A stretch of DNA of 64,000 nt from Halorutilales archaeon Cl-col2-1 (GCA_041891055.1 CP169074.1:512001-576000), one strand, 5' to 3'. Shown: positions 24,146 through 52,402, counted from the stretch's first letter. Program-made: numbers and translations. The notes: generated by a model from the sequence alone, not told the origin.

Positions 24146-24190
24146 AGCTAACTAACATTTCTAATATTTCTCTAGAGACGTTGGTTAGCT
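24146..24190. repeat. spaced inverted-repeat site 1 (AGCTAACTAAC-N23-GTTGGTTAGCT)
   Basis: Read directly from the sequence; homologous to sites at 25398, 28364, 46302, 52356. Confidence 0.8.
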
Positions 24191-24537
24191 ATATTCGTAG
24201 TTTCCTTCCTTGACTCCGAGTAGAACTCAGATAGACATAGTCATAGATACTTCCATTCGAGGAAATAGCTTTTCCTCCCGTATTGCAGTTTCTTCTGCCG
24301 TGTTGAAGAGAGGTACAGCGTAGGGATTAATCGTTAGAGGATTAAGAATGAAGTCGAGAAGAGAATTTTATTTGTAGAGCGCGTTGAGTGTCATCTCGTC
24401 GACAGCAACACCTTTCTCCTCCATGGAGTTGATATCCAATTAATACGTGTTAGAAGGTAATAAAGCTATCGCAGAAACACACCGCCCATATAACACGAGT
24501 AAATAGGCTTAAGTATAATCCATTCGTACGTCGTTCT

Positions 24538-24936
24538 ATGGGTGGAGAGAGACCGCGACGCGAAGACGGGACTTTCGAGAAAACAGTCACCGAACAAGAC
24601 ATACTGAAGACACTCGACAGTGCCGACGCTCCTATAATGACGGCTAAGGAGATCGCCGACGAGCTCGACGCCTCGAATGTCATCGTAGGAGAAAGGCTCA
24701 AAGAGATGCATGACAGCGGGCTCGTAGGACGAAAGAAGACAGGTGCACGTGCCGTCGCATGGTGGGCTAAAGTCAAGCCCCAACCCGAGGTCGACGCCGA
24801 CATCGAGGATATGGACGCGTCCGACTTCCGCGGAATCATAAAGACAGACAAGACGGCTAAGCAACTCGTCGAAGAAGCCCGTGAGAAGGATCGCGAGCGC
24901 GAAGAACGTCTTATGGACGTAGCGAAGAATGAATAA
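24538..24936 (+). CDS. HTH protein, putative antitoxin
   Basis: MTAKEIADEL..RLKEMHDSGLVGRKKTGARAVAWW wHTH; overlaps the PIN gene. Confidence 0.8.
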   Translation: MGGERPRREDGTFEKTVTEQDILKTLDSADAPIMTAKEIADELDASNVIVGERLKEMHDSGLVGRKKTGARAVAWWAKVKPQPEVDADIEDMDASDFRGIIKTDKTAKQLVEEAREKDREREERLMDVAKNE

Positions 24937-25342
24937 CGAACGTATTGTCTTCGACACGGAACCACTCGTCGCACAAGCCGCCTCAGAAACGGGCGAGGAA
25001 GTAGTAGAGTCATACCTTGACCGCGTCAAAGAAGGCGACCTTGAAGGCTTCGTCAGTCCTGTTACCCTAACCGAGGTCAAGTACATAACACAGAGAGTTG
25101 AGACAGCTATACCGACCGACGTCTTCCTTAGTTGGATACAGACCCTACTACACAGAGTAGACGCGTCGGACTGTTGGAATGACGCAGCACGATACAAGGA
25201 AAAACACCAGGTCGCACTCGGAGACGCCTACTCTCTAGCAACCGCTAACTACGTCGACGGTACTCTCCTCGCCGGAGCTGACGACGACTTCGACACAATC
25301 GACGACGTCGACGTCGAGAGGTTCAGAGAAGATTCCGTATAG
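24929..25342 (+). CDS. PIN-domain (VapC) toxin
   Basis: IVFDTEPL, TLTEV, ALGDAY, GADDDF. Confidence 0.85.
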   Translation: MNNERIVFDTEPLVAQAASETGEEVVESYLDRVKEGDLEGFVSPVTLTEVKYITQRVETAIPTDVFLSWIQTLLHRVDASDCWNDAARYKEKHQVALGDAYSLATANYVDGTLLAGADDDFDTIDDVDVERFREDSV

Positions 25343-25345
25343 ATG

Positions 25346-25443
25346 TCATTACTCCCGTAGGTAGTCTATATCGTCCAAGGTTGTTCTGTCCTAGTATATC
25401 TAACCAACAGTCTCTAGATTATTTTCGAAAATGTTGGTTAGCT
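25346..25443 (+). repeat. ~98 bp dispersed direct repeat containing inverted-repeat site 2
   Basis: TCATTACTCCCGTAGG.AGTCTATATC.TCCAAGG..GTTCTGTCC...CTAACCAACA...TGTTGGTTAGCT recurs at 52305-52402. Confidence 0.85.
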
Positions 25444-25508
25444 CTCTATTCTCTCGTCGACGACATCACCATTCACCTCCCCAAAGTTGGTGTCTTGTAC
25501 CGTACCAG

Positions 25509-25889
25509 TCAAACCCCGAACGGGAGATTGAGGTCAAACTGATAATTAGAATTGAAGTCAGGCGTAGTCCCGTTAAGACCCTTAGAAGCTATGTTAATAT
25601 CCATCTCAATAATACGCTTATCATTCATTATACCATATGTTTCAAACTGAAATTTATTATCTGGCGATATAGGGTTTTTAAGCAGAGAGAAGTTCATATC
25701 AACCCCAATATAAGGACCACTCCCTATCTTAAAATCATAATTAGAACCATCAGAAGACACCCCAGACAAGTTACCCGTCTTGCTAAATGTACTATTATTC
25801 ATGTCAAATCCAGGATCCTGAGCTGTAGAAAGAGGTGGAGTTGCAACTATGCTTAAAATAGCCATCAGTACAAAAATTTGTCTGTTCAT
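25509..25889 (-). CDS. hypothetical secreted protein (AT-rich)
   Basis: Signal-peptide-like N-terminus, Asn-rich with sequons. Confidence 0.55.
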   Translation of the reverse strand: MNRQIFVLMAILSIVATPPLSTAQDPGFDMNNSTFSKTGNLSGVSSDGSNYDFKIGSGPYIGVDMNFSLLKNPISPDNKFQFETYGIMNDKRIIEMDINIASKGLNGTTPDFNSNYQFDLNLPFGV

Positions 25890-25944
25890 AGAGTCGAATA
25901 ACTAGGAGAGGGCAAAAAATCTTTGGCAACACAGAATACTGGGT

Positions 25945-27186
25945 TCAGCTTCGGTCACTTGTTATCTTATTTACTGCACTTGAGGCGAAGTTTCTGACGT
26001 CCTCGTTTCTCTCCTCGCGGATCATTCTGTTGAGGTCACCAACGGCTTTCTTAGCTCCTATCTTACCGAGTGCGAACGCAGCCATCTTTCTGACCTCGGG
26101 CTCTCTGTGTCTGAGAGCATCCGTGAGGTGATAGACAGCCGGCTGTCCTATCTCAGTAAGACTCGTGGCGGCTAGCCTTCTCACCTGTTGATCGTCGTCT
26201 TCGAGAGCGTCGATAAGAGGGTCTATCATTCTTCTGTTACCTATATGCCCCAACAACCATGCTGCATTTCTTCTTATAGGTGCTTGACTTGATTCTTCGA
26301 GAGCGGAGACAACAGGAGCTACACCCATCTCTGTATCCAAGTCTTCAAGGCGAGAAGCTATCTTCTCACGTATCCTGTGGCTCTCTTCGACGGGAGCCTT
26401 CGAAAGAATCTCTATCAATGCTATCGTGATACTCTCTCTAACCAGTACTTCGTCGTCTGTCAGAGAGTCGAGAAGAGGGTCTATAACTTCTTCACCTCCT
26501 ACACTACCGAGTGCATAGGCTGCGGTTTTTCGGACATAGAGGTACTCGTCGTTTAGAGCCTTTATCAGATCTTCAACTCCTTTTTTACTGCCTATGTCTT
26601 TGAGAGAAACCGTAGCCTGTCTCCGCACCTCCTGGTTTGGATCGTCTAAAAGACCGGTTAAGGGTTCGACGGCTCTCTCGTCTCCAAGACTGCCTAGACT
26701 ACGAGCGACGTTCTCTCTGACCTTGGGATCGTTGTCATCCAAAGCGTGTATGAGTGGCTTGAGTGCTCTTTTTTCACCTATGTGTCCTAGACCGAGTGCA
26801 GCAACAATTCGGATAACGGGTGATTCTGAGTCAAGTGCATTTATGAGAAACTCCGTTGAAGCTCTATCGTCGTCGTCCTGGGATAGCTTCGTGTCGTTCT
26901 CTGTCTCGTATTTACCGATAAGACGTCTGACCTTGTCTATGTCCGCAGACCACACTAGTGACTCAGCAGCAGCTTTTCGTACTTTCTGACTTCGGTCACC
27001 CACTGCTGTCTTGATCAGGATGTTTACTCTTTTTTCTTGGAGATCTTCGTCCTGTATTTCTAGGTCTCCGATGACCTCGGCTGCTCGTGTTCTGGCAGCT
27101 ACAACCGGGTTATTTTCTATATGCTCGATTAGACCAGAGATGTCACCATCTTTTTCAAGAGCAAACAGAGCCTCTTCACTAGACAT
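25945..27186 (-). CDS. HEAT repeat (PBS-lyase-like) protein
   Basis: Repeated VR..AA.ALG.IG...AV.PLI.AL.D motifs. Confidence 0.9.
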   Translation of the reverse strand: MSSEEALFALEKDGDISGLIEHIENNPVVAARTRAAEVIGDLEIQDEDLQEKRVNILIKTAVGDRSQKVRKAAAESLVWSADIDKVRRLIGKYETENDTKLSQDDDDRASTEFLINALDSESPVIRIVAALGLGHIGEKRALKPLIHALDDNDPKVRENVARSLGSLGDERAVEPLTGLLDDPNQEVRRQATVSLKDIGSKKGVEDLIKALNDEYLYVRKTAAYALGSVGGEEVIDPLLDSLTDDEVLVRESITIALIEILSKAPVEESHRIREKIASRLEDLDTEMGVAPVVSALEESSQAPIRRNAAWLLGHIGNRRMIDPLIDALEDDDQQVRRLAATSLTEIGQPAVYHLTDALRHREPEVRKMAAFALGKIGAKKAVGDLNRMIREERNEDVRNFASSAVNKITSDRS

Positions 27187-27582
27187 ATCCCTCTTCTGTG
27201 TGTACTGTTGATTTTACTGAGTCTTAATCATTTTGCCGAGATGTCGGTTTTTACAGGCAGTCGAGACGAATGCCCCGGGGTCGTATGCAAATCGAAGGTT
27301 TGCTTGCTCAAAAATCTAAGATTGATAAAGTCAGCTATGCGCCTCGAATCGTAGAGCCAGCACGCTCACATTCGAAAAATATGGAGAAGCATGATTATGT
27401 CAGTCAAAAAGATCCTAACCGAGAAACGGGCAAAGAGAGAGACAAAGATGTCTGTGACTACACTGGTACTGGGTATCTTTTCGGAGAAAATGCTTTCGCA
27501 GCTTGGTACAGATGGATGAGACGAGAAAAAAACCAATACGAGCGGTAACTTCATGTAAGGTAAGTGCATACTTCGGTACCGT

Positions 27583-28194
27583 ATGTCGCATGAACTGCCT
27601 GAACTGCCGTACGATTACGACGCTCTTGAACCGCACATAAGCGAACAGGTCGTCCGCTGGCACCACGACACTCACCATCAGGGATACGTAAACGGACTCA
27701 ACAGCGCCGAGGAGACGCTTGAGGAGAACCGCGAGGCGGGAGACTTCGACGGAAGTGCTGCCGCGATGAGAAGCATGAGCCACAACGGCTGTGGACATTA
27801 TCTCCACACTCTCTTCTGGGAGAACATGTCGCCCAACGGCGGCGGAGAGCCCGAGGGAGAACTCGCCGACCGCATAGAAGAGGACTTCGGAAGCTACGAG
27901 GCGTGGAAGGGAGAGTTCAAGGAGGCAGCCGGCTGGTCCGCGGGTGGCTGGGCACTTCTCGTCTACGACCCCGTCTCCGACTGCCTGCGTAACCTCGCTG
28001 TCCAGAAGCACAACGACGGCGCGCTCTGGCACACACATCCCATCTTCGCGGTCGATGTCTGGGAGCACTCGTACTACCACGACTATGGACCTGACCGCGG
28101 TGACTTCGTCGACAACGTCTTCGAGGTCGTTGACTGGGACGACATAGCCGAGAAGTACGAGAACGCGAAGAAGCTAGGCGAGCTTCACGGCTAA
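27583..28194 (+). CDS. sod: superoxide dismutase (Mn/Fe)
   Basis: LPELPYDYDALEPHIS, WHHDTHHQGY, DVWEHSYY. Confidence 0.97.
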   Translation: MSHELPELPYDYDALEPHISEQVVRWHHDTHHQGYVNGLNSAEETLEENREAGDFDGSAAAMRSMSHNGCGHYLHTLFWENMSPNGGGEPEGELADRIEEDFGSYEAWKGEFKEAAGWSAGGWALLVYDPVSDCLRNLAVQKHNDGALWHTHPIFAVDVWEHSYYHDYGPDRGDFVDNVFEVVDWDDIAEKYENAKKLGELHG

Positions 28195-28363
28195 GTGAGA
28201 AACACAGCGGTACGTCTATTTTTTGGCGAGCTGTACCGGCGCTGGGAGCGGTTAGATTTCTGGGCGATGTAATCACGCATCGAATCCATAGAGTTCGGGA
28301 CGGAGCTTTTCGATATCTTCGTCCTTAACATCAGAGTCTACGGACTTCAAAGACGAATCTCAG

Positions 28364-28403
28364 AGCTAACCAACGCCTTCTAGAGAAAAAATGTTGATTA
28401 GCT
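28364..28403. repeat. spaced inverted-repeat site 3 (AGCTAACCAAC-N18-GTTGATTAGCT)
   Basis: Read directly from the sequence. Confidence 0.8.
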
Positions 28404-28441
28404 CGCGGTATGTTATGCTCAAAATCAGGTATGTGTGTTTC

Positions 28442-28978
28442 TTAGACATATTCTTCTTTTGTTTTAGAAGGCAACTTTTCTGTGGCCTCTACGAGTTCGT
28501 CTCTGTCCCTCCATCTGTATAGTCTGTTGAGTTTGTCTAACTCTTTGAAGACTCCCTTGTGCATAGGACTGTACGGATCTTTCTCCTCGTACTCTCGCTT
28601 TAGGACATATGATTTCTTTTTTAGCCAGTCTGCGAACCGTATACCGCCTGATTCGAGCCTGAAATCTCCCTCTGAATCCTCTGCGACCCCGACTACATAA
28701 CTTGATATCTTAGCTATTAATTCGAATTTGTCTGTGAAGTTTCTCAGGGAGAGTAATATGTCACTCATCAGAAAAGCATAGGCATCCTTTCTTCTATTTA
28801 GTCTGTCTTTAACTAAATCTAGATTCCTTATTTTGCTGTAATTGCCGAGCACGAAGTAGCTTGTACCATATCTGAGCACAGGACGTATCTCATTTTGGTT
28901 AACCGTGTCAAGTATCTCGTTTAGCTCCTCTGGCTCGATCTCTTCAGTCATCTCTGTGGTATCTACGTCCTGACTCAT
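28442..28978 (-). CDS. hypothetical protein, possible NDT/TIR-like fold
   Basis: SYFVLGNY, YAFLMSDI, KFELI..SSYVVGVAE; homologous to 46903-47658. Confidence 0.65.
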   Translation of the reverse strand: MSQDVDTTEMTEEIEPEELNEILDTVNQNEIRPVLRYGTSYFVLGNYSKIRNLDLVKDRLNRRKDAYAFLMSDILLSLRNFTDKFELIAKISSYVVGVAEDSEGDFRLESGGIRFADWLKKKSYVLKREYEEKDPYSPMHKGVFKELDKLNRLYRWRDRDELVEATEKLPSKTKEEYV

Positions 28979-29054
28979 TATATTAGTTAATACATGACTT
29001 AGTAGCTAAGTTAGCCTACGTAAAGCTATAGTACTTGGAGACTGTAGATGACCT

Positions 29055-29450
29055 ATGAGCATCGAAGAGAGTGGGGATAGATCAACAGCACAAGACCTCA
29101 GTCTGATGCTTCAAGAGACTCGTCTTAAGATTCTTGAGCTCATAATCGGACATCCCAAGCAGTCTATAAGTATGGGAGAGCTCGACTACATGATCCCCGA
29201 TAAAAGCGAGGCAACTATCCGTAACCACATAGAGAAACTCGTTGATGCCGATATACTTGAAGAAAGAGAACTCGAAGACGAGAAAAAGTCTAATGACCTA
29301 CCCTACAAGTTCTATGAGATCTCAGATAAAGGGGGAAATCTGATTGAAGTTCACAACTTGATGAAAGCCGAGGATAAGCTGAACGAACTATATCAACGTA
29401 CTAAGAGAGATCGTATAAAGGACTATGAGAACGCTCCTCGTCCTGACTGA
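29055..29450 (+). CDS. ArsR-like winged-HTH regulator
   Basis: QETRLKIL..IIGHP..ELDYMIP..DLPYKFY; homologous to 46343-46798. Confidence 0.8.
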   Translation: MSIEESGDRSTAQDLSLMLQETRLKILELIIGHPKQSISMGELDYMIPDKSEATIRNHIEKLVDADILEERELEDEKKSNDLPYKFYEISDKGGNLIEVHNLMKAEDKLNELYQRTKRDRIKDYENAPRPD

Positions 29451-29539
29451 TATAGTCATCTACCCACGGCTAAATCCAGAATTCTTGACTAATATATTCT
29501 CCCGAAGAGTAATATACTTGTGTCAAGTAGGATGTAGCA

Positions 29540-30091
29540 ATGACAGAGACTCCTACAGATACAGACACAGACATAAACCAAGAGGTGACCTCAGGGTGGG
29601 TCGAGGAGACAACGCCCTTCGAGCGGATCAGGGAAGTGATGAAGAGAACGTATGAGCCTCAGGCGGCGTCTGCGATAGCCGACCGTGCCGAGACGACCTC
29701 GACGACGGCACGTAAGCATCTACAGCAGCTGTATGAGAGTGGATTCGTAGAAAAGACTTCACGAGAAGACAGGGATGCAACCCTTTACCGGAGATCTAGT
29801 GAGTCAGTCGTCCTTGAGCAAGCTCGTGATATACTTGACGAGATGGACTCTGGAGAACTCGTATCTCGTATACACGGGATGCAGGAAGATCTCAGAGAGT
29901 ACAGAGACGAGTACGGCGTCGAATCTCCCGAGGATGCGGTATTAGAGGATGTCAACATAGATGACGAGGAGCTACGCGACTGGCAGACTACGGAGCGTAA
30001 CCTGGGCATCGCCAAGGCTGCTCTAGCTCTTAGCGAGGCTGAGGACTCTGTGAGAATACAGACAAACAGTCCAGCAGATGTCCGGACATAG
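29540..30091 (+). CDS. winged-HTH protein (putative antitoxin of a haloarchaeal two-gene module)
   Basis: TTPFERIREV..IADRAETTSTTARKHLQQL; WQTTERNL. Confidence 0.75.
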   Translation: MTETPTDTDTDINQEVTSGWVEETTPFERIREVMKRTYEPQAASAIADRAETTSTTARKHLQQLYESGFVEKTSREDRDATLYRRSSESVVLEQARDILDEMDSGELVSRIHGMQEDLREYRDEYGVESPEDAVLEDVNIDDEELRDWQTTERNLGIAKAALALSEAEDSVRIQTNSPADVRT

Positions 30092-30548
30092 TAGTGAATC
30101 TCACGCTGTGCGTGGCGCGACGGATCGAGGTGCTCTTCTCGACTTCCGTGATACCTTCGAGGAGATGGAGCCGTTAGCGACGGCAGAGCTAGACGACTTT
30201 CTGAGTCCCGATGTACTCCGTATTCGTCTCGACGACGGTATAGGAGACGCTCAGAGCTCTAGAATCGACGTTGTCTGGACTGTCCACGGCGACTACAATA
30301 TCCATTATACCGACGATGCCGGTCGGGATTTTCGCTGGGATCTACATCCTCATGAGTATCCGAGACCAGCCGACGATAGACATTTTCATCCTCCTCCTGA
30401 CGCGTCGACGGATGCTGACAATGTAGAAGAGTCATGTATACAGGTTAGTGAGATCGAGCTAGTAGCACGTGCCGTACACAAACTCTGGCGAAGAGCCTAC
30501 GAAACGGGGTCGATAGACGATGTAAACGGCTACTCCAATCCTCCCTGA
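30078..30548 (+). CDS. hypothetical protein, putative toxin partner
   Basis: DYNIHY..FRWDLHPH..HFHPPP His-rich motifs; overlaps the upstream HTH gene. Confidence 0.65.
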   Translation: MSGHSSESHAVRGATDRGALLDFRDTFEEMEPLATAELDDFLSPDVLRIRLDDGIGDAQSSRIDVVWTVHGDYNIHYTDDAGRDFRWDLHPHEYPRPADDRHFHPPPDASTDADNVEESCIQVSEIELVARAVHKLWRRAYETGSIDDVNGYSNPP

Positions 30549-30563
30549 AAAAAGACTCGTCGT

Positions 30564-33356: not shown

Positions 33357-33409
33357 CGCACTAACCACGTTCCGAAGACGGTTTAACTTTTTACATCCTA
33401 TCCCGCCCA

Positions 33410-40320: not shown

Positions 40321-41311
40321 TGCTTTGTAGGATCGCTATAAGGCGTAGGATTTCACGATTTGACGGTTTTGTCGATGTTGTAGATAGCAGATTTTAGGAT
40401 CATTTCTCTGAACTCACGGTTCCAGAGGCGCGCACGCACGGCTGTGCCGAGCGTGCGCTTGATGGTTGAGAAGACAGTTTCACACATCCAGCGTTGATTG
40501 TAATCTTCATCTTTCATCCTAGCGTTGTGAGCCTTGTCTAGGTGTGTAAATTCACGATGCTTAATCAAGGGACGGACTCCGCTTTCGCGGAGGTCGTCCC
40601 GTAGCTTCTGCCAGTCATAACCTTTGTCTCCAGCGACGGAGAGCAGGTCATCAGCGTTCCGCTTAATGACCTGTTCTCCTATCTTAGTATCATGTTTCTT
40701 GGTTGTGGTTAAGCGAATCGGAGATTCGCGTACATCGTGAATCAAAGATTCACGAGATACAGTGAATGTCCAAGACAGAAAGTGTGTCAGTATCAACTAG
40801 AGCCGTTACTTTAAGCGAGCGAACACTGTAGTTCGCTCGCTGGCAGTAGTGTTTACTAGCTCTATCTCGATCGAATCCAGTGCTGTCAACAGCGACGTTT
40901 CTTTCGTCCTTAGACTCTGAGGATAGACGAAGAAAGAGCCTCATTGCTTTGATGTTTATCTTATCGAACCAGTCACAGAACGTAGTGAAGTGAGGGAGAT
41001 CGGTCACGGAGAGACCGATCTCCTCACGTATTCTCGGCATTTCTATCAAGAGATCTAGCGTTACTCTATAGGAGTCCTCTAGGTGAAGCCGTAATGAATG
41101 AAGTGCTATCATCGCCCACTCTGCGAACCCACCTCCGCCTTCCGGCGGGGCGGGTTCGTTCGGATTATCAACAGCGTTTTTAGCTAGCTTTACGCATCTT
41201 TCCGTGAAGCGACGGAGATTACTATCTACAATCATCATCAGCAATCTCTCGTCGCTTCTACCTATACTAAAATAGACCGATTCTAGCGCTGTCTAGCGAT
41301 CCTACAGGGCA
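40321..41311 (-). mobile_element. IS5-family (ISH1/ISH9-like) insertion sequence
   Basis: 18-bp TIRs TGCTTTGTAGGATCGCTA / TAGCGATCCTACAGGGCA; 8-bp target duplication GATTCGTC at 40313-40320 and 41312-41319. Confidence 0.92.
40353..41238 (-). pseudogene. IS5-family DDE transposase interrupted by a ~48 nt hairpin element
   Basis: AVDSTGF, AGDKGYD, YNQRWMCETVFS; frame broken at DIHC|TTTKKHD by an insert at 40711-40757. Confidence 0.88.
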
Positions 41312-45277: not shown

Positions 45278-46264
45278 ATGAGCATACTCGTAACAGGAGG
45301 GGCGGGCTTCATTGGGGGACATCTCGCCGAGACTTTCGTCGAAGATGGACACGATGTCGTAGCTATAGACAACTTCGACCCCTACTACAGCGTAGGTCTC
45401 AAGAGACACAACGTCGACTGTGCGCGTTCTGCGGCTGAGGAGAGTGACGGCACGTACGAGTTAGTAGAGGGCGACATCCGTGACGAGAAAGTCATCTCCG
45501 AGTTAGTCGAGGACGCCGACTACGTCTTTCACGAGGCGGCACAGGCAGGCGTACGTACGAGCGTCGAGAATCCACAGAAGGTCAACAGCATAAACGAGGG
45601 AGGACTTCTCAATATACTCGAAGCCGCGAAGGACTCGGGTACCGAACGCATCGTAGTGGCGAGTTCGTCGTCTGTCTACGGCAAGCCAGAGTATCTGCCC
45701 TACGACGAGGAGCATCCCAAGAGTCCTGTGAGTCCGTACGGAGTCTCGAAGCTGGCTTCAGAGAACTACACGCGTGTCTACAACGAGTTACACGGGCTCT
45801 CGACCGTCGTCATACGTCCCTTCACAGTCTACGGTCCACGTATGCGTCCCAACATGGCTATAACCAACTTCGTCTCACGGTGTATCAACGGCAAGTCGCC
45901 GGTCGTCTACGGAGACGGCGAACAGACACGTGACTTCACGTATATCGAGGACATAGTCGACGCCCACCGCACTCTTCTTGATACTGACGAAGCAGACGGC
46001 GAGGTCATGAATATCGGCAGTACTGACAATATCTCGATAAACGAGCTCGCGAGGGAGATACGGGATGAGATAGATCCCGACCTCGACATCGAGTACGACG
46101 AGAGACACGACGCCGACGCCGAACACACCCACGCCGACATCTCGAAGGCTAAGAATCTTATAGGCTACGAGCCGAATACGGAGATACGTGAAGGCGTCTC
46201 GGAGTTCGTCGACTGGTACCGCGACAACAGAGACTGGTACGAGACCCTAGTTCTGGAGTCTTGA
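45278..46264 (+). CDS. NAD-dependent nucleotide-sugar epimerase (GalE/WbgU-like)
   Basis: TGGAGFIG, AAQAGVR, SSSSVYG, YGVSK. Confidence 0.9.
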   Translation: MSILVTGGAGFIGGHLAETFVEDGHDVVAIDNFDPYYSVGLKRHNVDCARSAAEESDGTYELVEGDIRDEKVISELVEDADYVFHEAAQAGVRTSVENPQKVNSINEGGLLNILEAAKDSGTERIVVASSSSVYGKPEYLPYDEEHPKSPVSPYGVSKLASENYTRVYNELHGLSTVVIRPFTVYGPRMRPNMAITNFVSRCINGKSPVVYGDGEQTRDFTYIEDIVDAHRTLLDTDEADGEVMNIGSTDNISINELAREIRDEIDPDLDIEYDERHDADAEHTHADISKAKNLIGYEPNTEIREGVSEFVDWYRDNRDWYETLVLES

Positions 46265-46301: not shown

Positions 46302-46343
46302 GTCTAACCAACAGACTCCAATATTAGAAGTCGTTGGTTAGCT
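46302..46343. repeat. spaced inverted-repeat site 4 (GTCTAACCAAC-N20-GTTGGTTAGCT)
   Basis: Read directly from the sequence; abuts the stop codon of the HTH gene. Confidence 0.8.
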
Positions 46344-46798
46344 TACAAAGAAAGTCCCTGTTCAACAGTTTCTGGTAGTTCTGGACGGGGGGCATCCTGA
46401 TGCCTTTCTAATTTTTCAGACTTCTTTGTATTATCATAGACTGCTCTCAAGACCGGGACATTATTGAGGTACTGATAATCCCTTAGTACCTGAATACCTC
46501 TTTCAGTAAACCCATAGAAACGAGAAGGTAGGTCTCTCTTATCCTTGTTAGGAGGATACTCATATAGATCAAGTATCCCCTCCTCTATAAGATTATCAAG
46601 CTGATCGTCAATAGCCCCCTTGCTCTTAGGGATCATATAGTCTAACTCATCAAGAGACATGAGGTGTTTTGGATGTCCGAGAATATACCGTACTACTTGG
46701 TGGCGGGTTTCTTGAGAAAGCAGATCAAATAGCTGTCTCTGCTCCTCTAGTGGATCCTCTTTGATTCTCGTCCCGGTTTCGCTCATGTGTGTACTCAT
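46343..46798 (-). CDS. ArsR-like winged-HTH regulator
   Basis: QETRHQVV..ILGHP..ELDYMIP..DLPSRFY..APRP; paralog of 29055-29450. Confidence 0.8.
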   Translation of the reverse strand: MSTHMSETGTRIKEDPLEEQRQLFDLLSQETRHQVVRYILGHPKHLMSLDELDYMIPKSKGAIDDQLDNLIEEGILDLYEYPPNKDKRDLPSRFYGFTERGIQVLRDYQYLNNVPVLRAVYDNTKKSEKLERHQDAPRPELPETVEQGLSL

Positions 46799-46902
46799 AC
46801 AGTCTCACTGGATATAATACTTGGGCTTGACTAATGTAGTTTTTTCTAGAAATACTAAAGTGGTGGAGAAGTTATATCCGAATATAGGATAAGTGATTGG
46901 TA

Positions 46903-47658
46903 ATGGAGGATATATCAACACCATCGAACTCGGAGGAGATTTACCAACTCATAGACGGGATCTTACAGGACATAGATCTTGAGCCATTCGAGGCATCCAA
47001 GATAATGGGTTATGTAAATAGAGAGCTGCCACACTTACTACGCCCAGAGACAACATCCTACTTTGTTCTGGGTAGCTACGAATACCCCTATATACGAAGA
47101 CTCAGAATAGTTCATAACGAACTGAGCAGGAGAACAGGATCATATCCGTTCATAATGGGGGATTTGCCCCAGATAGATATAGATAGACTACCTGAGTTTC
47201 GTATAGAGTTTCACTTGCTCGGATTATCGACTGACTACATCGTCGGTGTATATGAAAAAAGAGGGGGCGGAGAAGTAACGGAGTTAGGTAAGATAACGGA
47301 GAAACCGTACTTCGAATACTCGCATATACTACCTCGGTACTACAGATGGTCTGAAAAAGACCAGCCGGAGAGTAAACTCGATATTCTTATAGAGGCTATA
47401 GAGATGGATTCTGAGAATGATCTCAACTCCAGTAGAATGGACAAGTTACTGGAGAAGGCAGAGGAGAATCACATAGATATAGACCGATCGGAGATACGAG
47501 AAGTAATCGATCAAAAGAACCTCGAAGAAGATGATATGCCTGAGTACAGCTGGGTACAAATGAATGAGTTCCGACAGTTTGAGTTACACGGGAGATGTTA
47601 CCCATGGACAACAGAGAAATCTCTCCGAAATCAACTGGATAACGTACCAAGATCCTAA
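46903..47658 (+). CDS. hypothetical protein, possible NDT/TIR-like fold
   Basis: SYFVLGSY, YPFIMGDL, STDYIVGVYE..GGEVTELG; paralog of 28442-28978. Confidence 0.65.
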   Translation: MEDISTPSNSEEIYQLIDGILQDIDLEPFEASKIMGYVNRELPHLLRPETTSYFVLGSYEYPYIRRLRIVHNELSRRTGSYPFIMGDLPQIDIDRLPEFRIEFHLLGLSTDYIVGVYEKRGGGEVTELGKITEKPYFEYSHILPRYYRWSEKDQPESKLDILIEAIEMDSENDLNSSRMDKLLEKAEENHIDIDRSEIREVIDQKNLEEDDMPEYSWVQMNEFRQFELHGRCYPWTTEKSLRNQLDNVPRS

Positions 47659-47746
47659 AGAAATATTCAGTTCTAACTTTCGCTCCTGTGTAAGTTCAAG
47701 TGTTGGTAAAAAACCAACAAGTAGCTACGATAGTCTGTATATGTAC

Positions 47747-47965
47747 TCAGTCCGAGTTCGAGACTTCACGAGGATCTTCTACTAGCTCATAGAGGCCTCT
47801 ATCTACTTTCTCTAAAATCCCGTGTTCTGTCAATCTCTTTATTCTTTGACTGGCATACTGCCTACTTACACCGATTCTATCTGCTAAATTAGCAGGGGTA
47901 TTTCTGCCTTCTCTAAGCTCATTTATTATTTTTGTATCCGTATCATTCAGATCAATATTTGCCAT
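47747..47965 (-). CDS. small winged-HTH regulator (repressor-like)
   Basis: LNDTDTKIINELREGRNTPANLADRIGVSRQY..RGLYEL. Confidence 0.85.
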   Translation of the reverse strand: MANIDLNDTDTKIINELREGRNTPANLADRIGVSRQYASQRIKRLTEHGILEKVDRGLYELVEDPREVSNSD

Positions 47966-48150
47966 TACTTATACATGGGGCATAGTCCATAAGTATATTC
48001 TGGTAAGTAAGTGACTGTTAGTAAAGTATAAGTGGTCGGCTACCATTAGGTAAGTTAAGAAGCGCGATACTCCGGACTACGGGGCTTAGTTCTCGTAGAA
48101 AGGGACGGGTGCGCCAACACCCGCCGAGCGCTTCTCGGAGTGAGAAGCAA

Positions 48151-48561
48151 ATGTATCATAGCCACGAGACTCGGAAAAACGTATCGTTATTAGAGCAACT
48201 CCTACATGGACTCCGCGTTGGAGTAGGAGAATCGCGTAACGAGATCGCTGTATGCGATAGCTGTGGAGTTCGTCTACGCGAAGGATCCGAAGCTACGGCA
48301 TACGCCAACTCCAGAGCGGGGGAGAGTAGCTGGCATACGAAAGGTGTCTACTGCCGTAACTGCTCGAAGACTCAGATAGAGACATCCACTAAGAACAACG
48401 AAGAAGTCGTCGTTCATGGACATATAGCTCTTCTCCAGGATGCTAAGTATCAGACGTCATCCCTCGTCCTCGTAGAGATAGAAGTCCTCGATTACAGTAG
48501 CGAGAAAGAAGGCGTCGAGACACAGACTCTTGCAGTAACAAAGAGCGACGGAGGTTACTGA
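48151..48561 (+). CDS. hypothetical zinc-binding protein
   Basis: CDSC and YCRNC pairs; first gene of a rightward operon. Confidence 0.6.
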   Translation: MYHSHETRKNVSLLEQLLHGLRVGVGESRNEIAVCDSCGVRLREGSEATAYANSRAGESSWHTKGVYCRNCSKTQIETSTKNNEEVVVHGHIALLQDAKYQTSSLVLVEIEVLDYSSEKEGVETQTLAVTKSDGGY

Positions 48562-48562
48562 G

Positions 48563-48742
48563 ATGGACTCGGAAGAACGTCTACGTAAACTCCGCTGTGA
48601 TCACTGTGGTGAGTATCCGTCGCTACACCGTGCCGTCGACAACCAAGAAGTACTCGTCGTTAAATGTGGATGTGAGTCCCCGAGAAGGCTCAGGCTCGGT
48701 ATTCGCAGACTGAAGCCCAAGTCGTGGAGGGCTGAGAGATGA
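48563..48742 (+). CDS. small zinc-finger protein (59 aa; below ORF-track cutoff)
   Basis: GGAGG SD; MDSEERLRKLRCDHCGEYP...VKCGC...; ATGA overlap with the next gene. Confidence 0.6.
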   Translation: MDSEERLRKLRCDHCGEYPSLHRAVDNQEVLVVKCGCESPRRLRLGIRRLKPKSWRAER

Positions 48743-50292
48743 TAGACATCGAAGATCTCAGCCTCGATCCAGAGAAGTACCAGGTCATGCCCGATCTTGA
48801 CGAGGAGGACTACGAGAAGCTCAAACGTGACATCGGTGACAACGGCATCCAGACTGCGATAGACGTCGACGACGAAAACAATGTAATCGATGGACACCAG
48901 CGTATTCGTGCATGTCGTGAACTCGGCATAGACGAGATAGAGGCACGTATCCACGTCGGACTATCAGAAGAGGAGAAGAAAGAACTCGCCTGGAGACTCA
49001 ACCTACAGAGGCGTCATCTCGAGGACGGTCAGAAACGTGATCTAGCGAGGGAGTATCTACTCGATATCTGGGACGGTGAGGCTACAGAAGAAGAAATAGC
49101 CGATACCCTCGGTATCCATAGAAAGACTGTCAACCGCGCCAAACACGACCTTCAAGAAGATGGTAAGCTCGGTCAGGTGACCGAACTTAACACATCTGAA
49201 AAACGTGAGATAGTCAGAGAATACATCGAGGACAATCCCGACGCCTCGAACCGCGAAGTGGCACAAGAAGTCGACTGCGATGTTTCCCACGTGACTGTCG
49301 GCAAATGGCGTAAGTCTGAGGATCAAAACAAAGAGAGCGACTCGAACTCTGACTCCGATGAATCTGAAGACTCCACTGACAAAAGCAGTAACTCCGAATC
49401 CGACTCAAGTTCGGACAAAGAAAAGACAGACTCAGAGCTTTCTTTGACTCTTCGCAACGCTGACTCGAAAGAAGTCAAGAAACTCCGGAGTCTCAGAAAC
49501 AAAGCCGATAAAGGCAACCAAACTGCCCAAGAGCAGCTACAGAGGATAGAAGACGACAGAACCTCAGTCCATACTGCTCACAAGAAAGTGGAAAAAGAGG
49601 AGGCAGAGAAAGAAGTAGAACAACAACGCCGGACAGACGGTGGAGAGACAGCCCCCAGTATAACCGCCAAACCCGCTCTGGAGTTCATCGAAGAGTACGA
49701 GAATAGAGCTGTCGACCTTCTGATCACCGACCCACCATACTGTACTGACGTAGACGATATCGACGGGTTCGCTCAAGGCTGGCTACCCACGGCACTCGAG
49801 AAAGTCAAAGACGACGGCTACGCATACGTCTTCATAGGCGGATACACTCAGGAGATCTATGCCTATCTCTCAGTGCTTGAGGAGATAGACAGGTTCGAGA
49901 GCCAGATCCTGGTCTGGGAGTACAAGAACACACTCGGACAGACTCCCGCAAACCGCTACACGCGTAACTATCAGGCAGTCCTCTTCTTACGCGGTAACGA
50001 GACCAGAGAGCTCAACGCCCCCAAGACCTCCGAACAGTGGGCAGTCCAAAACATCAATGCTCCTGACCCGAGGCACGAAGAGAAACACCACAAATGGCAG
50101 AAGCCTGAAGAACTCCTCGAGCGCTTCATCAGGCATTCGAGCCAAGAAGACGATTTAGTGATCGATCCATTCGCTGGCTCCGGGACTGTCTTGCTCACAG
50201 CAGCGAGTTTAGGCAGAGAAGCATACGGCTGTGACATAGACAACGAAGCCATAGAGACTGCCAGAAAGAGGGGGTGTGTCCTCGATGAGTAA
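48739..50292 (+). CDS. ParB/Srx domain - HTH - DNA N6A/N4C methyltransferase fusion
   Basis: VIDGHQRIRAC ParB motif; HTH segments; TDPPY motif IV, QKPEEL, DPFAGSGT motif I (beta-class order). Confidence 0.88.
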   Translation: MIDIEDLSLDPEKYQVMPDLDEEDYEKLKRDIGDNGIQTAIDVDDENNVIDGHQRIRACRELGIDEIEARIHVGLSEEEKKELAWRLNLQRRHLEDGQKRDLAREYLLDIWDGEATEEEIADTLGIHRKTVNRAKHDLQEDGKLGQVTELNTSEKREIVREYIEDNPDASNREVAQEVDCDVSHVTVGKWRKSEDQNKESDSNSDSDESEDSTDKSSNSESDSSSDKEKTDSELSLTLRNADSKEVKKLRSLRNKADKGNQTAQEQLQRIEDDRTSVHTAHKKVEKEEAEKEVEQQRRTDGGETAPSITAKPALEFIEEYENRAVDLLITDPPYCTDVDDIDGFAQGWLPTALEKVKDDGYAYVFIGGYTQEIYAYLSVLEEIDRFESQILVWEYKNTLGQTPANRYTRNYQAVLFLRGNETRELNAPKTSEQWAVQNINAPDPRHEEKHHKWQKPEELLERFIRHSSQEDDLVIDPFAGSGTVLLTAASLGREAYGCDIDNEAIETARKRGCVLDE

Positions 50293-50893
50293 GAGTAGAG
50301 GATGGAGGGGCGACCTCAGACAGAGTGCCGACGCTTTCGAGAGAGTCGTCTATCCCGAGATAGCCGACGAGATCGGCGTAGGCGGAGGAGAGCTACTCTC
50401 GGTAGAGAGAGCCGATCCTGACGACCCGGAGAGTCAGAGGATAATAGAGATGCTCGATAGCTATGCTGGGATCGATTACCTACATAAAGACACCGACGGG
50501 ATAGTACGTGGGATAGCGAGTCGCGTGCAGAGATCGACCGACTACGGTAGCTTTACAGTTCGTCTAAAACGTGAAAGTCACAAACCCACCGAGTTCGGCA
50601 AGCGTCTCAAGTCGATTGAGTTCGGCGGGTTACACCCACAGATCACCTCTCAGGCGTATGTGCGTGATGGAGAATTAATCAACGTCGGACTCTGCCGTAC
50701 ACAAGGTCTCATCAACTACATCGTAAACGGAGAGATCAACACTCACTATCTCTTGAATCAAGTAGACGAGAACGGAGAGGCCCATTTTGTCGTCGTCTTT
50801 TGGGAGGACTACGCTCGGTACACGGACAGCTACCTCCACGTACACGACGAAAAAGAGTACCACAGATCCGCCGAGGAGATAGCTCCAGCGTGA
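50285..50893 (+). CDS. hypothetical protein, possible PD-(D/E)XK-like nuclease
   Basis: AGIDY..GIASRVQ..SFTVR..TEF.KR pattern; overlaps the methyltransferase stop. Confidence 0.55.
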   Translation: MSKSRGWRGDLRQSADAFERVVYPEIADEIGVGGGELLSVERADPDDPESQRIIEMLDSYAGIDYLHKDTDGIVRGIASRVQRSTDYGSFTVRLKRESHKPTEFGKRLKSIEFGGLHPQITSQAYVRDGELINVGLCRTQGLINYIVNGEINTHYLLNQVDENGEAHFVVVFWEDYARYTDSYLHVHDEKEYHRSAEEIAPA

Positions 50894-50935
50894 TCTGACT
50901 AGACCACCTCTATCCCATCATTTTTCAGAATATCT

Positions 50936-51964
50936 ATGACAAAGACAACAGCAGGTTCTGAGGTATTAACTCCGAGTATAGATCTGAGTCTCTCCGAGCT
51001 AACACGCAGGGAGTTTCATGAGAGTTTTTGGAGGGACAACTTCGATCTACTCGGTCGAGCAGTCAAGAGGATCGTCGAAGACCTCGAACTCACGACCTGG
51101 AGCCGACTGCCGTCATATCTCTGGCGTAACGGCGTAACCGAGATGAACCACGAGTACGCCCTCGATATGGTCTCTTATGAGTTCGAGAAAGAGACCTCGG
51201 TAGAGAGACTCAAAAACCTCACTCTCGCACTCGGATCAGGTAAGAGGATCAGCCCCGTCGACGAAGAGCTATATGGCACATACAACACAACAAAAGACGA
51301 CGTCTTCGCTCCCTTCAAGATCCTCGATATAGCCGGCATACAGCCCGAAATCGAGATAGATATACCCTCCAGAGCGGTGGGTGGGATCGATAGAGAGTTC
51401 TTCGACGAATTGGGCGAATACGTCGACTTAGGGATAGAGGTCAGCCTTGGAGACACAGACGAGCCTACCCAACTACCAGAGTATGTCCATATAGATTTAG
51501 ATACAGGTCACTCGAAGAGAGACAAACATGGCTACTGGCATAAAAGACAAGATCTCCACAAAGCCGTAGAGACTCCGGACAGGGCTCTGAGAGTACTCGA
51601 GGACATAGCCGATGATCTACAGACCAAGAGCAACGACTACGAGTACAACTATGAGCAACTACAGAAACTAACCGACCTCGACAGGAGTACTCTGATAACG
51701 TATACAAAGCTTCTAGAGGCGAACCGACTCGTAGAGAAGGATAAGGACGAAAGACGTGTAAAGATCTCTCTGACCGACGTAGGTGTAGCTTTCACGAGTC
51801 TAGTGATGGACATCGGTGTAGAGAAGACAGCCAGATTCAGATCCTCTCTTTCAGGTTTCTTCGTAGAAGGTCTTGACTCAGAGAAAGAAGTTAGTAAGAC
51901 CGATACCAGCAGAAGAAGACAGAGTAAGCCACCTCCAAAGACAAAGAAGAGCAAGGTGACTTAG
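50936..51964 (+). CDS. hypothetical protein with C-terminal winged HTH (possibly truncated replication protein)
   Basis: YEQLQKLTDLDRSTLITYTKLLEANRLVE..ISLTDVG; basic low-complexity tail. Confidence 0.55.
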   Translation: MTKTTAGSEVLTPSIDLSLSELTRREFHESFWRDNFDLLGRAVKRIVEDLELTTWSRLPSYLWRNGVTEMNHEYALDMVSYEFEKETSVERLKNLTLALGSGKRISPVDEELYGTYNTTKDDVFAPFKILDIAGIQPEIEIDIPSRAVGGIDREFFDELGEYVDLGIEVSLGDTDEPTQLPEYVHIDLDTGHSKRDKHGYWHKRQDLHKAVETPDRALRVLEDIADDLQTKSNDYEYNYEQLQKLTDLDRSTLITYTKLLEANRLVEKDKDERRVKISLTDVGVAFTSLVMDIGVEKTARFRSSLSGFFVEGLDSEKEVSKTDTSRRRQSKPPPKTKKSKVT

Positions 51965-52304
51965 CCTTACACCGACGCCTTACAGCAGTTTGTTAGCTTT
52001 CGTCTCGTTAGAGGCATCTCCGAGAAACTCTCCGCTCACTCTCCCACGGAGTCTCCGTCTTCTTGCGATTCTGGTGAAAGTAACCTAGACCGACCTTTTC
52101 TGAGAACAACGTCGAGAACCATACCAAAAATCCATCCTCAGCTCATTCTACGGATCCTCTGAGAAGGTCTTCTATAGGGTCTCTACCTAACTCCATTTGT
52201 CTGTTCTCAAGAAAAATCAAAGACATCGTATACATAGTGCTATATGTAGTGCTATTCTCCTCTCCACGAGACCTACAGATAGAATTCTATCTCTTCTCTA
52301 GAGA

Positions 52305-52402
52305 TCATTACTCCCGTAGGCAGTCTATATCCTCCAAGGTTTGTTCTGTCCCATTAGCTAACCAACATTCCTAGATAATTTTCGAAAAAATGTTGGTTAG
52401 CT
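52305..52402 (+). repeat. ~98 bp dispersed direct repeat containing inverted-repeat site 5 (AGCTAACCAAC-N25-GTTGGTTAGCT)
   Basis: Homologous to 25346-25443. Confidence 0.85.

Follow-up and report, generated by a model that had tools for sequence, protein, structure and literature searches.

Five spaced inverted repeats lie between genes in the window (the whole stretch of 64,000 nucleotides analysed, C1:512001-576000 of Halorutilales archaeon Cl-col2-1), and they are probably bipartite, double-stranded protein-binding boxes from the maintenance or regulatory backbone of haloarchaeal secondary replicons, with a small, plasmid-borne, DUF6788-related protein as their likely binder. The boxes and the features around them, in window coordinates, are as follows.

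24146..24190, unstranded: site 1, a box of 45 bp between a GC-rich 349-aa ORF, 121 nt upstream of it, and an HTH gene, 348 nt downstream
25340..25397, minus strand: short copy of the R2 flank, about 55 nt
25344..27423, unstranded: insert specific to this genome and absent from its congener, which includes a HEAT-repeat gene and a weak DUF7332-like ORF as well as site 2
25398..25443, unstranded: site 2, a box of 46 bp; the PIN gene stop lies 55 nt upstream
28364..28403, unstranded: site 3, a short-spacer box of 40 bp; the 3' end of a 178-aa gene is 39 nt away
46302..46343, unstranded: site 4, a 42-bp box, the only one of the five without CTAG
46343..52355, unstranded: island between sites 4 and 5, holding a wHTH/253-aa gene pair, ORFs of 150, 205 and 342 aa, a ParB-N/methyltransferase gene and the R2 flank
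52158..52355, minus strand: long copy of the R2 flank, adjoining site 5
52356..52402, unstranded: site 5, a box of 47 bp whose 11-bp arms are perfect; the stop of a UDP-glucose dehydrogenase gene is 79 nt away

All five repeats named in a preliminary description of this DNA are present at these positions, with AGCTAACCAAC arms and their complements starting at 24146/24180, 25398/25433, 28364/28393, 46302/46333 and 52356/52392 with zero to two mismatches; that description understated how many there are across the genome. The exact full pattern matches once in the window (site 5) against 0.00 expected from 100 shuffles, and the 11-mer at up to two mismatches matches 28 times against a shuffle mean of 10.97 and a maximum of 18. 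Across the whole genome there are 31 paired sites at up to two mismatches and none for a reversed control pattern; a GC-rich regex match at C1:1745868 with four arm mismatches was left out as chance. Because the matches lie far above both the shuffles and the reversed control, chance is excluded for the five sites. Twenty of the 31 copies lie on a 116-kb plasmid-like contig, one on a 10-kb contig and ten in low-GC islands of the chromosome. The boxes are thus distributed in a replicon- and island-specific way.

The conserved core is TAACCAAC-N23/24-GTTGGTTA, or TAACCAAC-R-N22-Y-GTTGGTTA when the spacer edges are included, and in this genus and Haloarcula it extends to GCTAACCAAC...GTTGGTTAGC. 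Pairing between the arms is perfect over 10-11 bp, without bulges, in sites of 40-47 bp, and the spacer between 10-bp arms is 18-28 bp long, mostly 23-25. Of 157 distinct core sites drawn from many genomes, 138 are 39-40 bp long, with half-site centres 31-32 bp apart, a distance of three helical turns. The first spacer base is A in 87% of these 157 sites and the remaining positions are near uniform; positions 2-10 are unconserved and the spacer centre is A/T-enriched (position 11 is A at 0.42 and T at 0.29). This combination of three-turn spacing and free spacer sequence is more in keeping with a protein-binding site in double-stranded DNA than with a hairpin or a recombinase core. Haloarcula boxes have identical arms and unrelated spacers, and spacers at orthologous loci drift through point changes, a pattern suggesting that selection acts on the arms only.

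The preliminary description had called the spacers variable and had noted CTAG in four of the five; the CTAG count is correct, but within the genome under study (G000) the spacers share a conserved asymmetric pattern, with one TTTCGAAA-like half and one TCTAGAG-like half. Spacers are also conserved between unrelated loci in G000 and its congener (G001), which recognition of the arms only does not explain. Between unrelated loci of these two genomes, identity amounts to 83-97% over the full 45 bp, spacer and all, and the unit has sharp borders, as would be expected if the boxes were a selfish palindrome of the REP or MITE kind spread by a transposase acting in trans. We consider this origin highly improbable, since in Haloarcula and other genera the copies share arms alone and whole-length likeness is confined to this genus, no target-site duplication is visible in the flanks, and boxes occupy stable orthologous positions across species. 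Nor is there an excess of decayed copies: next to 31 good sites only three candidates appear at five mismatches, against five in the control. Like REP/BIME (RAYT) elements, the boxes are short extragenic palindromes in tens of copies that often follow gene ends, but their arms are conserved across families and their loops are free in sequence and fixed in length.

A scan of relatives, as the preliminary description had proposed, finds that 19 of 41 related genomes contain the core box, the number per genome reaching 25. No box lies inside a called gene, either among the 31 sites of G000 or among 84 genomic sites elsewhere. Gene orientation around the sites is random: convergent, tandem and divergent contexts number 10, 14 and 7 in G000 and 19, 43 and 16 in the other genomes, near the 1:2:1 ratio expected from random intergenic placement.

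The box co-occurs with a small protein of about 107-118 aa in which a helical N-terminal part and an acidic linker precede a C-terminal segment rich in Tyr, Trp and Arg (motif YYYWQWREG). With a strong protein match defined as E ≤ 1e-10, 17 of the 41 genomes have both box and protein, two the box only, one the protein only and 21 neither, although these counts are not independent because the genomes are related. At nearly every small-protein locus examined, a box lies 1-20 nt upstream of the gene's own start codon. Both intact genes and one pseudogene copy in G000 start 1 nt from a box (3/3), five of seven Haloarcula genes start 2 nt from one, and among 20 homologs from 14 other genomes, a complete box ends 13-20 nt ahead of the ATG in 18 and the remaining two retain the proximal arm. 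No copy of the gene was detected in the 120-contig assembly of G001 despite its 10 core boxes. In one further genome (G006), the small-protein genes carry boxes of the TTAACCAAC type, and GCTAACCAAC boxes lie on small contigs without a gene of their own.

This placement is also what one would see if each box were no more than a compact promoter cassette, possibly active in both directions, whose TATA element lies midway between the arms. The A/T-enriched spacer centre lies about 22 nt from the outer edge, which fits archaeal TATA-to-start spacing, and the small gene begins 1-20 nt after the box. Nevertheless, convergent gene ends flank 10 of the 31 boxes here and 19 of 78 elsewhere, no fewer than by chance, spacer positions 2-10 are unconserved, and ten-base arms identical across families are not a known basal promoter element, all of which leaves a promoter cassette very improbable. 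About a quarter of boxes are flanked by convergent gene ends, so not every copy can have promoter control as its role. At the type-B boxes of G000, a TTTTATA stretch, read by eye from the sequence, precedes the box-abutting ATG by 27-33 nt.

The small protein has no match in Pfam. None of 20 members matches the PF20586 (DUF6788) model at E ≤ 1, and that model has no match in the protein's own genome; true PF20586 matches in relatives nevertheless coincide with weak matches of the small-protein query, and a language-model search places the protein near DUF6788 clusters with a score of 0.96. It is therefore better regarded as a distant relative of DUF6788 than as a member. Sister subfamilies that are true PF20586 members or close kin also have boxes: all eight genes carry a palindrome of the same geometry, which abuts the start codon in seven and lies about 35 nt upstream in one. 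These sister boxes are multi-copy (1-7 per genome, reversed controls 0), and their arm classes, CCTTATGTAAC, CCTTGTACAAC and TCTTACCAAAC, are each paired with a C-terminal motif of their own. The TAACCAAC arm class likewise has a distinct C-terminal motif class, read from the TTAACCAAC form in other genera, and a variant of this motif is seen in the Haloarcula and G000 proteins that go with the GCTAACCAAC form. Arm sequence thus covaries with protein subfamily over 28 loci, from which the four arm classes were assigned by eye, and three box specificities coexist on one contig of another genome (G031).

Covariation does not prove that the small protein is the binder, because orthologous orc1/cdc6 paralogs could covary with the arms too. 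An orc1/cdc6 gene lies within about 1.5 kb in 15 of 20 small-protein loci and three of eight sister loci, both orc1/cdc6 genes on C2 have boxes at their ends, and inverted arms around an A/T-richer centre loosely resemble the layout of an origin. The boxes might then be mini-ORB-like sites for replication control or silencing, recognised by the neighbouring Orc1/Cdc6 paralog, with the small gene a merely regulated neighbour. We think this quite improbable: the position of the box is fixed relative to the start codon of the small gene, whereas its position and orientation relative to orc1 vary, orc1 is absent from five of the 20 loci and five of the eight sister loci, and a 23-bp spacer is far below the length of known unwinding elements. 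According to passages of PMC3528665, haloarchaeal ORBs carry a G-string; the box has none, and a term search of PMC3528665 for the strings aaccaac and gttggtt gave no match. Other neighbours include parA, found beside the box or gene in three of 20 loci, two of eight sister loci and three to four Haloarcula loci but not next to the G000 copies, and frequently a PadR gene.

Half-sites at a fixed helical phase with a free spacer, a copy at the gene's own promoter and covariation with protein subfamily are features of an operator, and a model based on the preferred reading, a box bound by the small protein, can be outlined. The protein would act as a dimer or higher oligomer, each C-terminal module reading one 9-11-bp arm. 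With arms three turns apart on the same face of the DNA, spacer length would be constrained and spacer sequence free. The box that covers the protein's own core promoter may mediate autoregulation, presumably by repression. Other intergenic boxes on the same replicon or on islands derived from it could serve as operators or as centromere-like docking sites comparable to KorB/ParB boxes, which would imply a part in partition or replication; the five copies in the window would be satellite boxes in plasmid-derived islands integrated in the chromosome.

KorB of the IncP plasmid RK2 is a ParB-family global regulator and partition protein whose O_B boxes are contiguous 13-bp palindromes. As in that system, a replicon-encoded DNA-binding protein (here a predicted one) is associated with about a dozen palindromic boxes in intergenic replicon DNA, some overlapping promoters, including that of its own operon, and others far from promoters, and there is a link to a ParA-type ATPase. 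In contrast to KorB, the small protein is unrelated to ParB, the box is bipartite with a free 23-24-bp spacer, the host is an archaeon and parA is present in only some loci. AspA of the Sulfolobus plasmid pNOB8, a PadR-type winged-helix protein with a single 23-bp palindromic centromere site, is likewise a small archaeal plasmid protein with a palindromic site just upstream of its own gene in a maintenance cassette that includes parA, but the small protein belongs to another family and its boxes are multi-copy and widely spaced. A broader proposal, which we regard as doubtful, is that boxes and DUF6788-related proteins form replicon-identity systems with several mutually exclusive specificities that also set the seams of module exchange. 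If so, these systems, beside orc1 and parA, would keep secondary replicons together by partition or copy control, and the boxes would define where haloarchaeal plasmids, minichromosomes and chromosomal islands exchange modules. This would amount to an archaeal cassette-exchange system based on a novel type of site and a novel protein that recognises it, whether or not the small tyrosine recombinase takes part.

The link between boxes and module borders, central to the preliminary description, is real. When two site flanks are homologous right up to the site (a flank pair), homology does not continue beyond the box in 42 of 95 pairs, against three of 49 for pseudo-sites placed 260 nt further out. 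Many of the breaks at 80-84% identity trace back to a single conserved family of gene plus box, where similarity persists in the coding sequence alone. Among pairs with at least 90% identity, breaks number six of 30 at boxes and none of 29 at pseudo-sites. In the block syntenic between G000 and G001, four of six indels carry or abut a site. Only one of these four is bounded by two sites; the other three have one internal site, an empty allele without a site and fuzzy junctions.

Such borders could be made by a recombinase, for instance a tyrosine recombinase of about 200 aa, that cuts at the arms and shuffles, inverts, inserts or deletes site-carrying cassettes. Beyond the excess of breakpoints, recent events have their break precisely at an arm, as with C2:106988 and C2:111482, whose flanks are 99% identical and whose spacers are unrelated. 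The spacer is inverted beside the same flank in two comparisons (C3:8146 with C68 of G001, and C2:109762 with C2:34083), and the C2:94029 paralog retains only the outer GTTAGCT of an arm. On C2, a site and a recombinase gene form a segment that is circularly permuted relative to the 10-kb contig, the break lying 3 nt from the edge of the site, and one toxin-antitoxin cassette of G001 sits between two sites where G000 has one. All three copies of the small recombinase gene in G000 lie within 125 nt of a site, and close homologs (E < 1e-30) occur only in box-positive genomes (7/7). Nevertheless, canonical tyrosine recombinases act on a core with an identical overlap of 6-8 bp, with which an unconserved spacer of 23-24 bp is incompatible. 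A recombinase homolog (E 1e-5) is absent from five of 19 box-positive genomes, including those with 19 boxes (G031) and eight (G022), and outside the genus the gene lies 0.6-8 kb from the nearest site. The 80-84% breaks, the three indels with siteless empty alleles and the stability of orthologous boxes also speak against it, and microhomology-mediated joining at arms of 10-11 bp would yield the same junctions without a dedicated enzyme. We therefore judge cutting by a recombinase to be unlikely, though it is the alternative to which we give most weight, and the small protein, with a box at its own promoter, is a better partner for the sites than the recombinase. On the preferred reading of a protein-binding box, arms would be favoured as rearrangement junctions because they are the sole sequence common to otherwise unrelated modules.

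The specific mechanism first suggested for these sites, of the attC or Xer/pdif kind, does not agree with their fixed three-turn spacing, lack of a conserved central region and perfect unbulged arms, and cassette shuffling by such a system does not agree with random gene orientation or with the siteless empty allele of three of the four indels. The boxes resemble attC sites in their imperfect AAC...GTT-type inverted ends, in that many adjoin gene 3' ends, in having toxin-antitoxin cassettes as neighbours and in the homology breaks. However, attC sites vary in length (about 57-141 bp), pair imperfectly (R''-L''/L'-R') and have extrahelical bases, whereas boxes have perfect arms within 40-47 bp; attC arrays consist of co-oriented, mostly promoterless single-gene cassettes that each end in a site, whereas box contexts are mixed, as in two stretches of C2 where sites lie about 1 kb apart among genes in mixed orientation. 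Sites of the dif type have an 11-6-11 layout of 28 bp with a central region of 6-8 bp, compared with about 10-23-10 in the boxes. Acinetobacter pdif sites are also palindromic and flank small plasmid accessory modules, including toxin-antitoxin pairs, but those modules are bounded by sites on both sides and box modules usually on one. Membership in attC, dif and MITE families was rejected on the features tested. A search for an IntI/XerA-like gene, also proposed earlier, found the recombinases of about 200 aa beside three G000 sites but no array platform (IntI/attI/Pc); the genome has 11 PF00589 matches, none of them in the window, as the preliminary description had said of recombinases there. 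Rfam gave no match at the sites at gathering thresholds in the window, nor at E ≤ 1 in 24000-28500, which covers sites 1-3, although the presence of an attC model in the Rfam copy used was unconfirmed.

The surroundings of the individual sites agree with the earlier account. Site 1 sits at a drop in GC content from 0.643 (23001-24000) to 0.510 (24001-25000), within a 1,984-bp stretch (22492-24475) that is absent from G001 and from metagenome contigs. Sites 1 and 2 enclose the HTH gene (24538-24936) and the PIN gene (24929-25342). Site 2 lies 55 nt inside the left end of the 2,080-bp G000-specific insert, and a metagenome variant has a differently spaced box 19 nt from the junction at this end. 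In G001 the ortholog of site 3 is followed by a 579-bp VapB-type/ParE-like cassette and then by a second, degenerate box. Site 4 lies between the stops of an epimerase gene (38 nt) and of the 151-aa wHTH gene (0 nt). Sites 4 and 5 enclose the ParB-N/HTH/N6_N4 methyltransferase gene (48739-50292) within a 6.1-kb stretch, the right two-thirds of which has paralogs at C1:1037736-1039735 and C2:89767-94029; homology with C1:1038301-1039735 (88%) stops exactly at the outer edge of site 5.

The R2 flank is a conserved sequence found next to sites 2 and 5 and next to two further sites of the chromosome, each time on the TCTAGAG side. No convincing ORF was found in its long copy, and the fold z-score over 52150-52410, a range that includes site 5 itself, is −2.38. 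The duplicated wHTH/NDT-like module is genuine, the 178-aa and 253-aa proteins being 36% identical (E 4e-15) and the 131-aa and 151-aa wHTH proteins 34% identical (E 2e-23), and sites 3 and 4 do adjoin module 3' ends, at 39 nt from the 178-aa gene and 0 nt from the 151-aa gene. These two genes are different members of the duplicated pair.

All five spaced inverted repeats of the preliminary description were recovered in the window, at exactly the positions it gave for them.

Site 1: 24146-24190
Site 2: 25398-25443
Site 3: 28364-28403
Site 4: 46302-46343
Site 5: 52356-52402

The perfect full pattern occurs once in the window versus 0.00 expected from 100 shuffles, and the 11-mer arm with at most two mismatches occurs 28 times versus 10.97 expected and a shuffle maximum of 18. 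The neighboring genes, CTAG content, GC step and duplicated module reported for these sites were all borne out, as was the absence of a recombinase gene from the window. The source genome (G000) totals 2.06 Mb and consists of C1 (the chromosome, 1.935 Mb, 55.4% GC), the plasmid-like C2 (116 kb, 49.6% GC), C3 (10.3 kb) and C4 (3.3 kb). We found 31 boxes in it, ten on C1, 20 on C2 and one on C3, and none with a reversed control pattern; one further regular-expression match was left out as a chance occurrence because it is GC-rich. The ten C1 boxes are grouped in four places, and the 5-kb surroundings of eight of them lie at or below the tenth GC percentile of the chromosome (0.512). Solitary arms followed by the first few spacer bases but lacking a partner arm are present at C1:363136, C1:368565, C1:1229173 and C2:24063, and may be decayed boxes or rearrangement scars.

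The motif scan of this genome and its relatives that the preliminary description called for revealed a multi-copy box across haloarchaeal genera. Among 41 genomes, the GCTAACCAAC form (two mismatches at most) reaches 11 copies in the congener G001, 18 in G019 and 11 in G006, the latter two belonging to other families than G000; single variant copies occur in four further genomes and none in 33. Scanning one genome per prokaryotic species for exact matches gave 65 loci, 61 of them haloarchaeal (many Haloarcula species, Halonotius, Halorhabdus, Halorientalis and Natronocalculus, often on plasmids) and four in unrelated bacteria, which is roughly chance level. Five box loci were found in IMG/VR. 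Outside this genus the arms are identical and the spacers unrelated. The core TAACCAAC...GTTGGTTA occurs in 19 of the 41 related genomes at 1-25 copies each (controls 0) and measures 39-40 bp in 138 of 157 distinct sites, so that half-site centers lie 31-32 bp apart, or three turns of B-DNA. The base following the arm is A in 87% of these 157 sites, and the remaining spacer is unconstrained. From this geometry, the strongest single argument on the point, we infer recognition of double-stranded DNA by a two-headed reading protein; it makes a hairpin substrate or recombinase core less likely.

Within this genus the spacer is more elaborate. Once oriented, 26 of the G000 boxes have in common an asymmetric spacer, one half of which resembles TTTCGAAA and the other TCTAGAG, and the conserved spacer with TTCGAA and TCTAGA palindromes is confined to the genus. 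Five boxes of G000, here called type B, share a different spacer together with ~390 bp of one flank. Most G000 box pairs are alike over the ~45-bp unit only, with sharp borders, and some are also alike in one flank, namely R1 (75 nt), R2 (55-550 nt) or further flank types. R1 has its own palindrome with 14-bp arms and adjoins six boxes (within C2:39134-58860 and at C1:1326771 in G000, and on contigs C7, C74 and C77 of G001); in the one case read through, a cassette on G001:C7, R1 separates the box from the 3' end of a PIN toxin gene. R2 adjoins window sites 2 and 5, and no convincing ORF was found in it beside site 5. The hairpin of site 5 dominates the fold of 52150-52410 (z-score -2.38). CTAG is depleted in the G000 chromosome (observed/expected 0.38) but 23 of 31 boxes have it, and 19 of the genome's 215 TCTAGA occurrences fall within boxes, which may reflect a link to modification or restriction directed at CTAG.

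We assigned gene contexts with a home-made codon log-odds caller trained on long ORFs, on which all context counts rest. No box falls within a called gene, either among the 31 of G000 or among 84 genomic boxes elsewhere. Convergent, tandem and divergent contexts number 10, 14 and 7 in G000 and 19, 43 and 16 elsewhere, near the random intergenic expectation; boxes thus favor neither the promoter side nor the terminator side of genes. The NCBI annotation of plasmid pHsi55 confirms a box in the gap between two convergent genes, which end 42 and 11 nt away from it, and the sole box of pNG400 lies 28 nt upstream of a gene. A role as terminator or RNA hairpin was rejected because the loop keeps a constant length of three helical turns, a U-tract is absent outside this genus and gene starts as well as gene ends adjoin boxes. 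Rfam gave no match at boxes either at gathering thresholds over the whole window and three C2 loci or at E <= 1 over 24000-28500.

Clustering of box-neighboring proteins from many genomes gave Orc1/Cdc6, ParA, PadR, small wHTH regulators and several family-less small proteins as recurring neighbors. For a small protein of 107-122 aa the start codon lies 1-2 nt from a box in G000 and Haloarcula. G000 carries this gene intact twice on C2 and once as a pseudogene at C1:263-603, with a type-B box in front of all three. In 14 other genomes the full box (N)TTAACCAAC...GTTGGTTAA(N) ends 13-20 nt before the ATG at 18 of 20 homologous loci, and the proximal arm alone is kept at two. Core box and a strong match to the small protein occur together in 17 of the 41 genomes, and 21 have neither. 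Two genomes (G001, whose assembly is fragmented, and G005) have the core box without a strong match to the protein, and one (G020) has the protein without the core box but with a near-box, one mismatch away, 88 nt upstream of the gene.

The small protein had no match in Pfam or NCBIfam. A language-model search placed it next to DUF6788 clusters, and the PF20586 model misses it but matches the query's weaker matches in relatives, which therefore constitute a sister subfamily. Profile searching of the PDB gave chance-level matches only (best E 0.26), and a sequence-atlas query with the C-terminal part gave no usable match. A profile search returned 426 cluster representatives, nearly all stand-alone small proteins; DUF6884 was present in two of nine longer proteins (200-554 aa) scanned as fused forms, which is uninformative. 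Full-text literature searches for the arm strings and DUF6788 returned nothing relevant, a result confined to those searches and no wider claim of absence from print.

A palindrome (arms of 10-14 bp, spacer of 20-26 bp) precedes all eight sister genes examined; in seven it stops 0-3 nt short of the start codon, and in the eighth ~35 nt short. Four of these genes have CCTTATGTAAC arms, two have CCTTGTACAAC arms and two have TCTTACCAAAC arms, and each arm class is paired with its own version of a C-terminal Tyr/Arg-rich motif. Boxes of the CCTTATGTAAC class (4, 3, 2 and 1 copies in four genomes) and of the TCTTACCAAAC class (5 and 7 copies in two) are multi-copy, with no reversed-control matches for either. 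A common architecture with class-specific arms, always at the protein's own gene start, is expected of an autoregulated, sequence-specific DNA-binding protein with a regulon or docking sites, the binding itself being predicted. We lean towards the boxes being docking or operator sites of the small protein. This would open a first way into the function of an uncharacterised protein family and, if binding is true, the four specificity classes would serve haloarchaeal genetics as ready-made orthogonal pairs of protein and operator. On a 316-kb contig of a related genome (G031:C2) three box classes lie side by side, with the TCTTACCAAAC class clustered within 26 kb.

An orc1/cdc6 gene lies within ~1.5 kb of the small-protein gene at 15 of the 20 loci and at three of the eight sister loci, and parA is nearby at three and two, respectively. 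In three or four Haloarcula loci parA lies opposite the box, and both orc1/cdc6 genes of C2 have boxes at their ends. These neighbors place the box system in the replication and partition neighborhood of secondary replicons. The box system may regulate these replicons, help to segregate them, or do both in the manner of KorB on RK2. If binding is true, this proximity makes it worth asking how haloarchaeal genomes with several replicons regulate or segregate the additional ones. The tag TAACCAAC-N23/24-GTTGGTTA, together with the sister boxes, marks secondary-replicon DNA and derived islands across haloarchaeal genera. The haloarchaeal ORB description in passages of PMC3528665 does not match the box, and those passages do not mention the motif. 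Near a box-flanked orc1/cdc6 gene, C2 carries a CRISPR array (Rfam CRISPR-DR24; L016:19526 to L017:1624, or C2 ~99.5-101.6 kb) with no fewer than 31 repeats, and a single ORF of ~3,250 aa (C2:540-10292, minus strand) directly follows a type-B box.

The boxes had originally been proposed as attC/Xer-like substrates of a tyrosine recombinase that mark the borders of accessory modules. Their position at borders held up. Among site pairs with homologous 200-nt flanks up to the site, homology ends at the site in 42 of 95 versus 3 of 49 at pseudo-sites 260 nt further out, and at >=90% identity in 6 of 30 versus 0 of 29, although the pairs are not independent and the control positions fall mostly within genes. 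Many pairs of 80-84% identity represent one conserved unit, an 83-aa gene plus a box, whose remaining similarity is limited to the coding sequence. The recent junctions are the informative ones. In one, a 99%-identical flank adjoins an unrelated spacer; two others keep the flank but have the spacer inverted; and in several the whole box travels with one flank and homology ends at the outer edge of the box. One C2 paralog retains just the outer seven bases of the arm. A C2 segment comprising a box and a small (~200-aa) tyrosine recombinase gene is a circular permutation of the C3 arrangement, broken 3 nt from the box.

A dedicated recombination system acting at the boxes would account for such junctions, and all three G000 copies of the small recombinase lie within 125 nt of a box, its close homologs occurring only in box-positive genomes (seven of seven). 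However, no homolog was found at E 1e-5 in five box-positive genomes, including G031 (19 boxes) and G022 (8), and the box architecture fails every tested defining feature of attC and dif, which speaks against the proposed attC/Xer-like membership. It likewise fails the tested features of MITE/REP elements, the MITE being an alternative named at the outset. We therefore consider a dedicated recombination system unlikely. If the boxes are instead docking or operator sites of the small protein, module junctions would be a secondary consequence of short identical arms common to unrelated modules, joined by microhomology repair or by some further enzyme. Given true binding, breakpoint enrichment at boxes would supply a concrete mechanism for the mosaic structure of haloarchaeal secondary replicons.

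Comparison with the congener supported the expected coincidence with synteny breakpoints in part: four of six differences between window 19248-34296 and the syntenic contig G001:C7 involve a site, but in three of these four the empty allele lacks a box.

G000-specific insert, 1,984 bp, carrying site 1
G000-specific insert, 2,080 bp, with site 2 at 55 nt from its end
G001-specific MazE/PIN cassette, 985 bp, with one box
G001-specific VapB-type/ParE-like cassette, 579 bp, with the site 3 ortholog on one side and a degenerate second box on the other
~21102-21636, indel of 533 bp, holding no site
~29444-30111, divergent stretch, holding no site

Only the 579-bp cassette resembles a filled site, and the single G000 box is not a hybrid of the G001 pair; at the three other site-bearing differences the junctions are fuzzy. 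Four metagenome contigs (X1-X4) confirm the allele of the G001 type, add a further variant at the site 2 junction, and contain no joints that would require recombination between window sites. Metagenome loose ends at 24144 and 24190 correspond to plasmid boxes resembling site 1. C2 genes of 328, 253 and 151 aa were rejected as paralogs of window genes of equal length.

The 46302-52402 island is flanked by an epimerase gene (45278-46264) and a UDP-glucose dehydrogenase gene (52481-53770), and G001 lacks these flanking glycosylation genes. Paralogs of the flanking genes, 95-97% identical, lie ~450 kb away at C1:1000912-1007096 in a different order and without boxes. A tRNA gene (18330-18403, minus strand) precedes the first G000-specific insert by ~4 kb and may once have served as an integration target. 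Short palindromes of a second family (direct-repeat families D3 and D5), namely GTGAATC-N4-GATTCAC and related forms that include GCAAATC...GATTTGC, occur at five places in the window, and some of them fall in the 533-bp stretch skipped by G001-type contigs.

14598-14628, second-family palindrome
21462-21583, second-family palindrome
22847-22877, second-family palindrome
27296-27326, second-family palindrome
40723-40753, second-family palindrome

Segments of ~100 bp from window 14544-14846 are repeated at 81-90% identity at no fewer than eight chromosomal places and on C2, and may represent a small mobile element.
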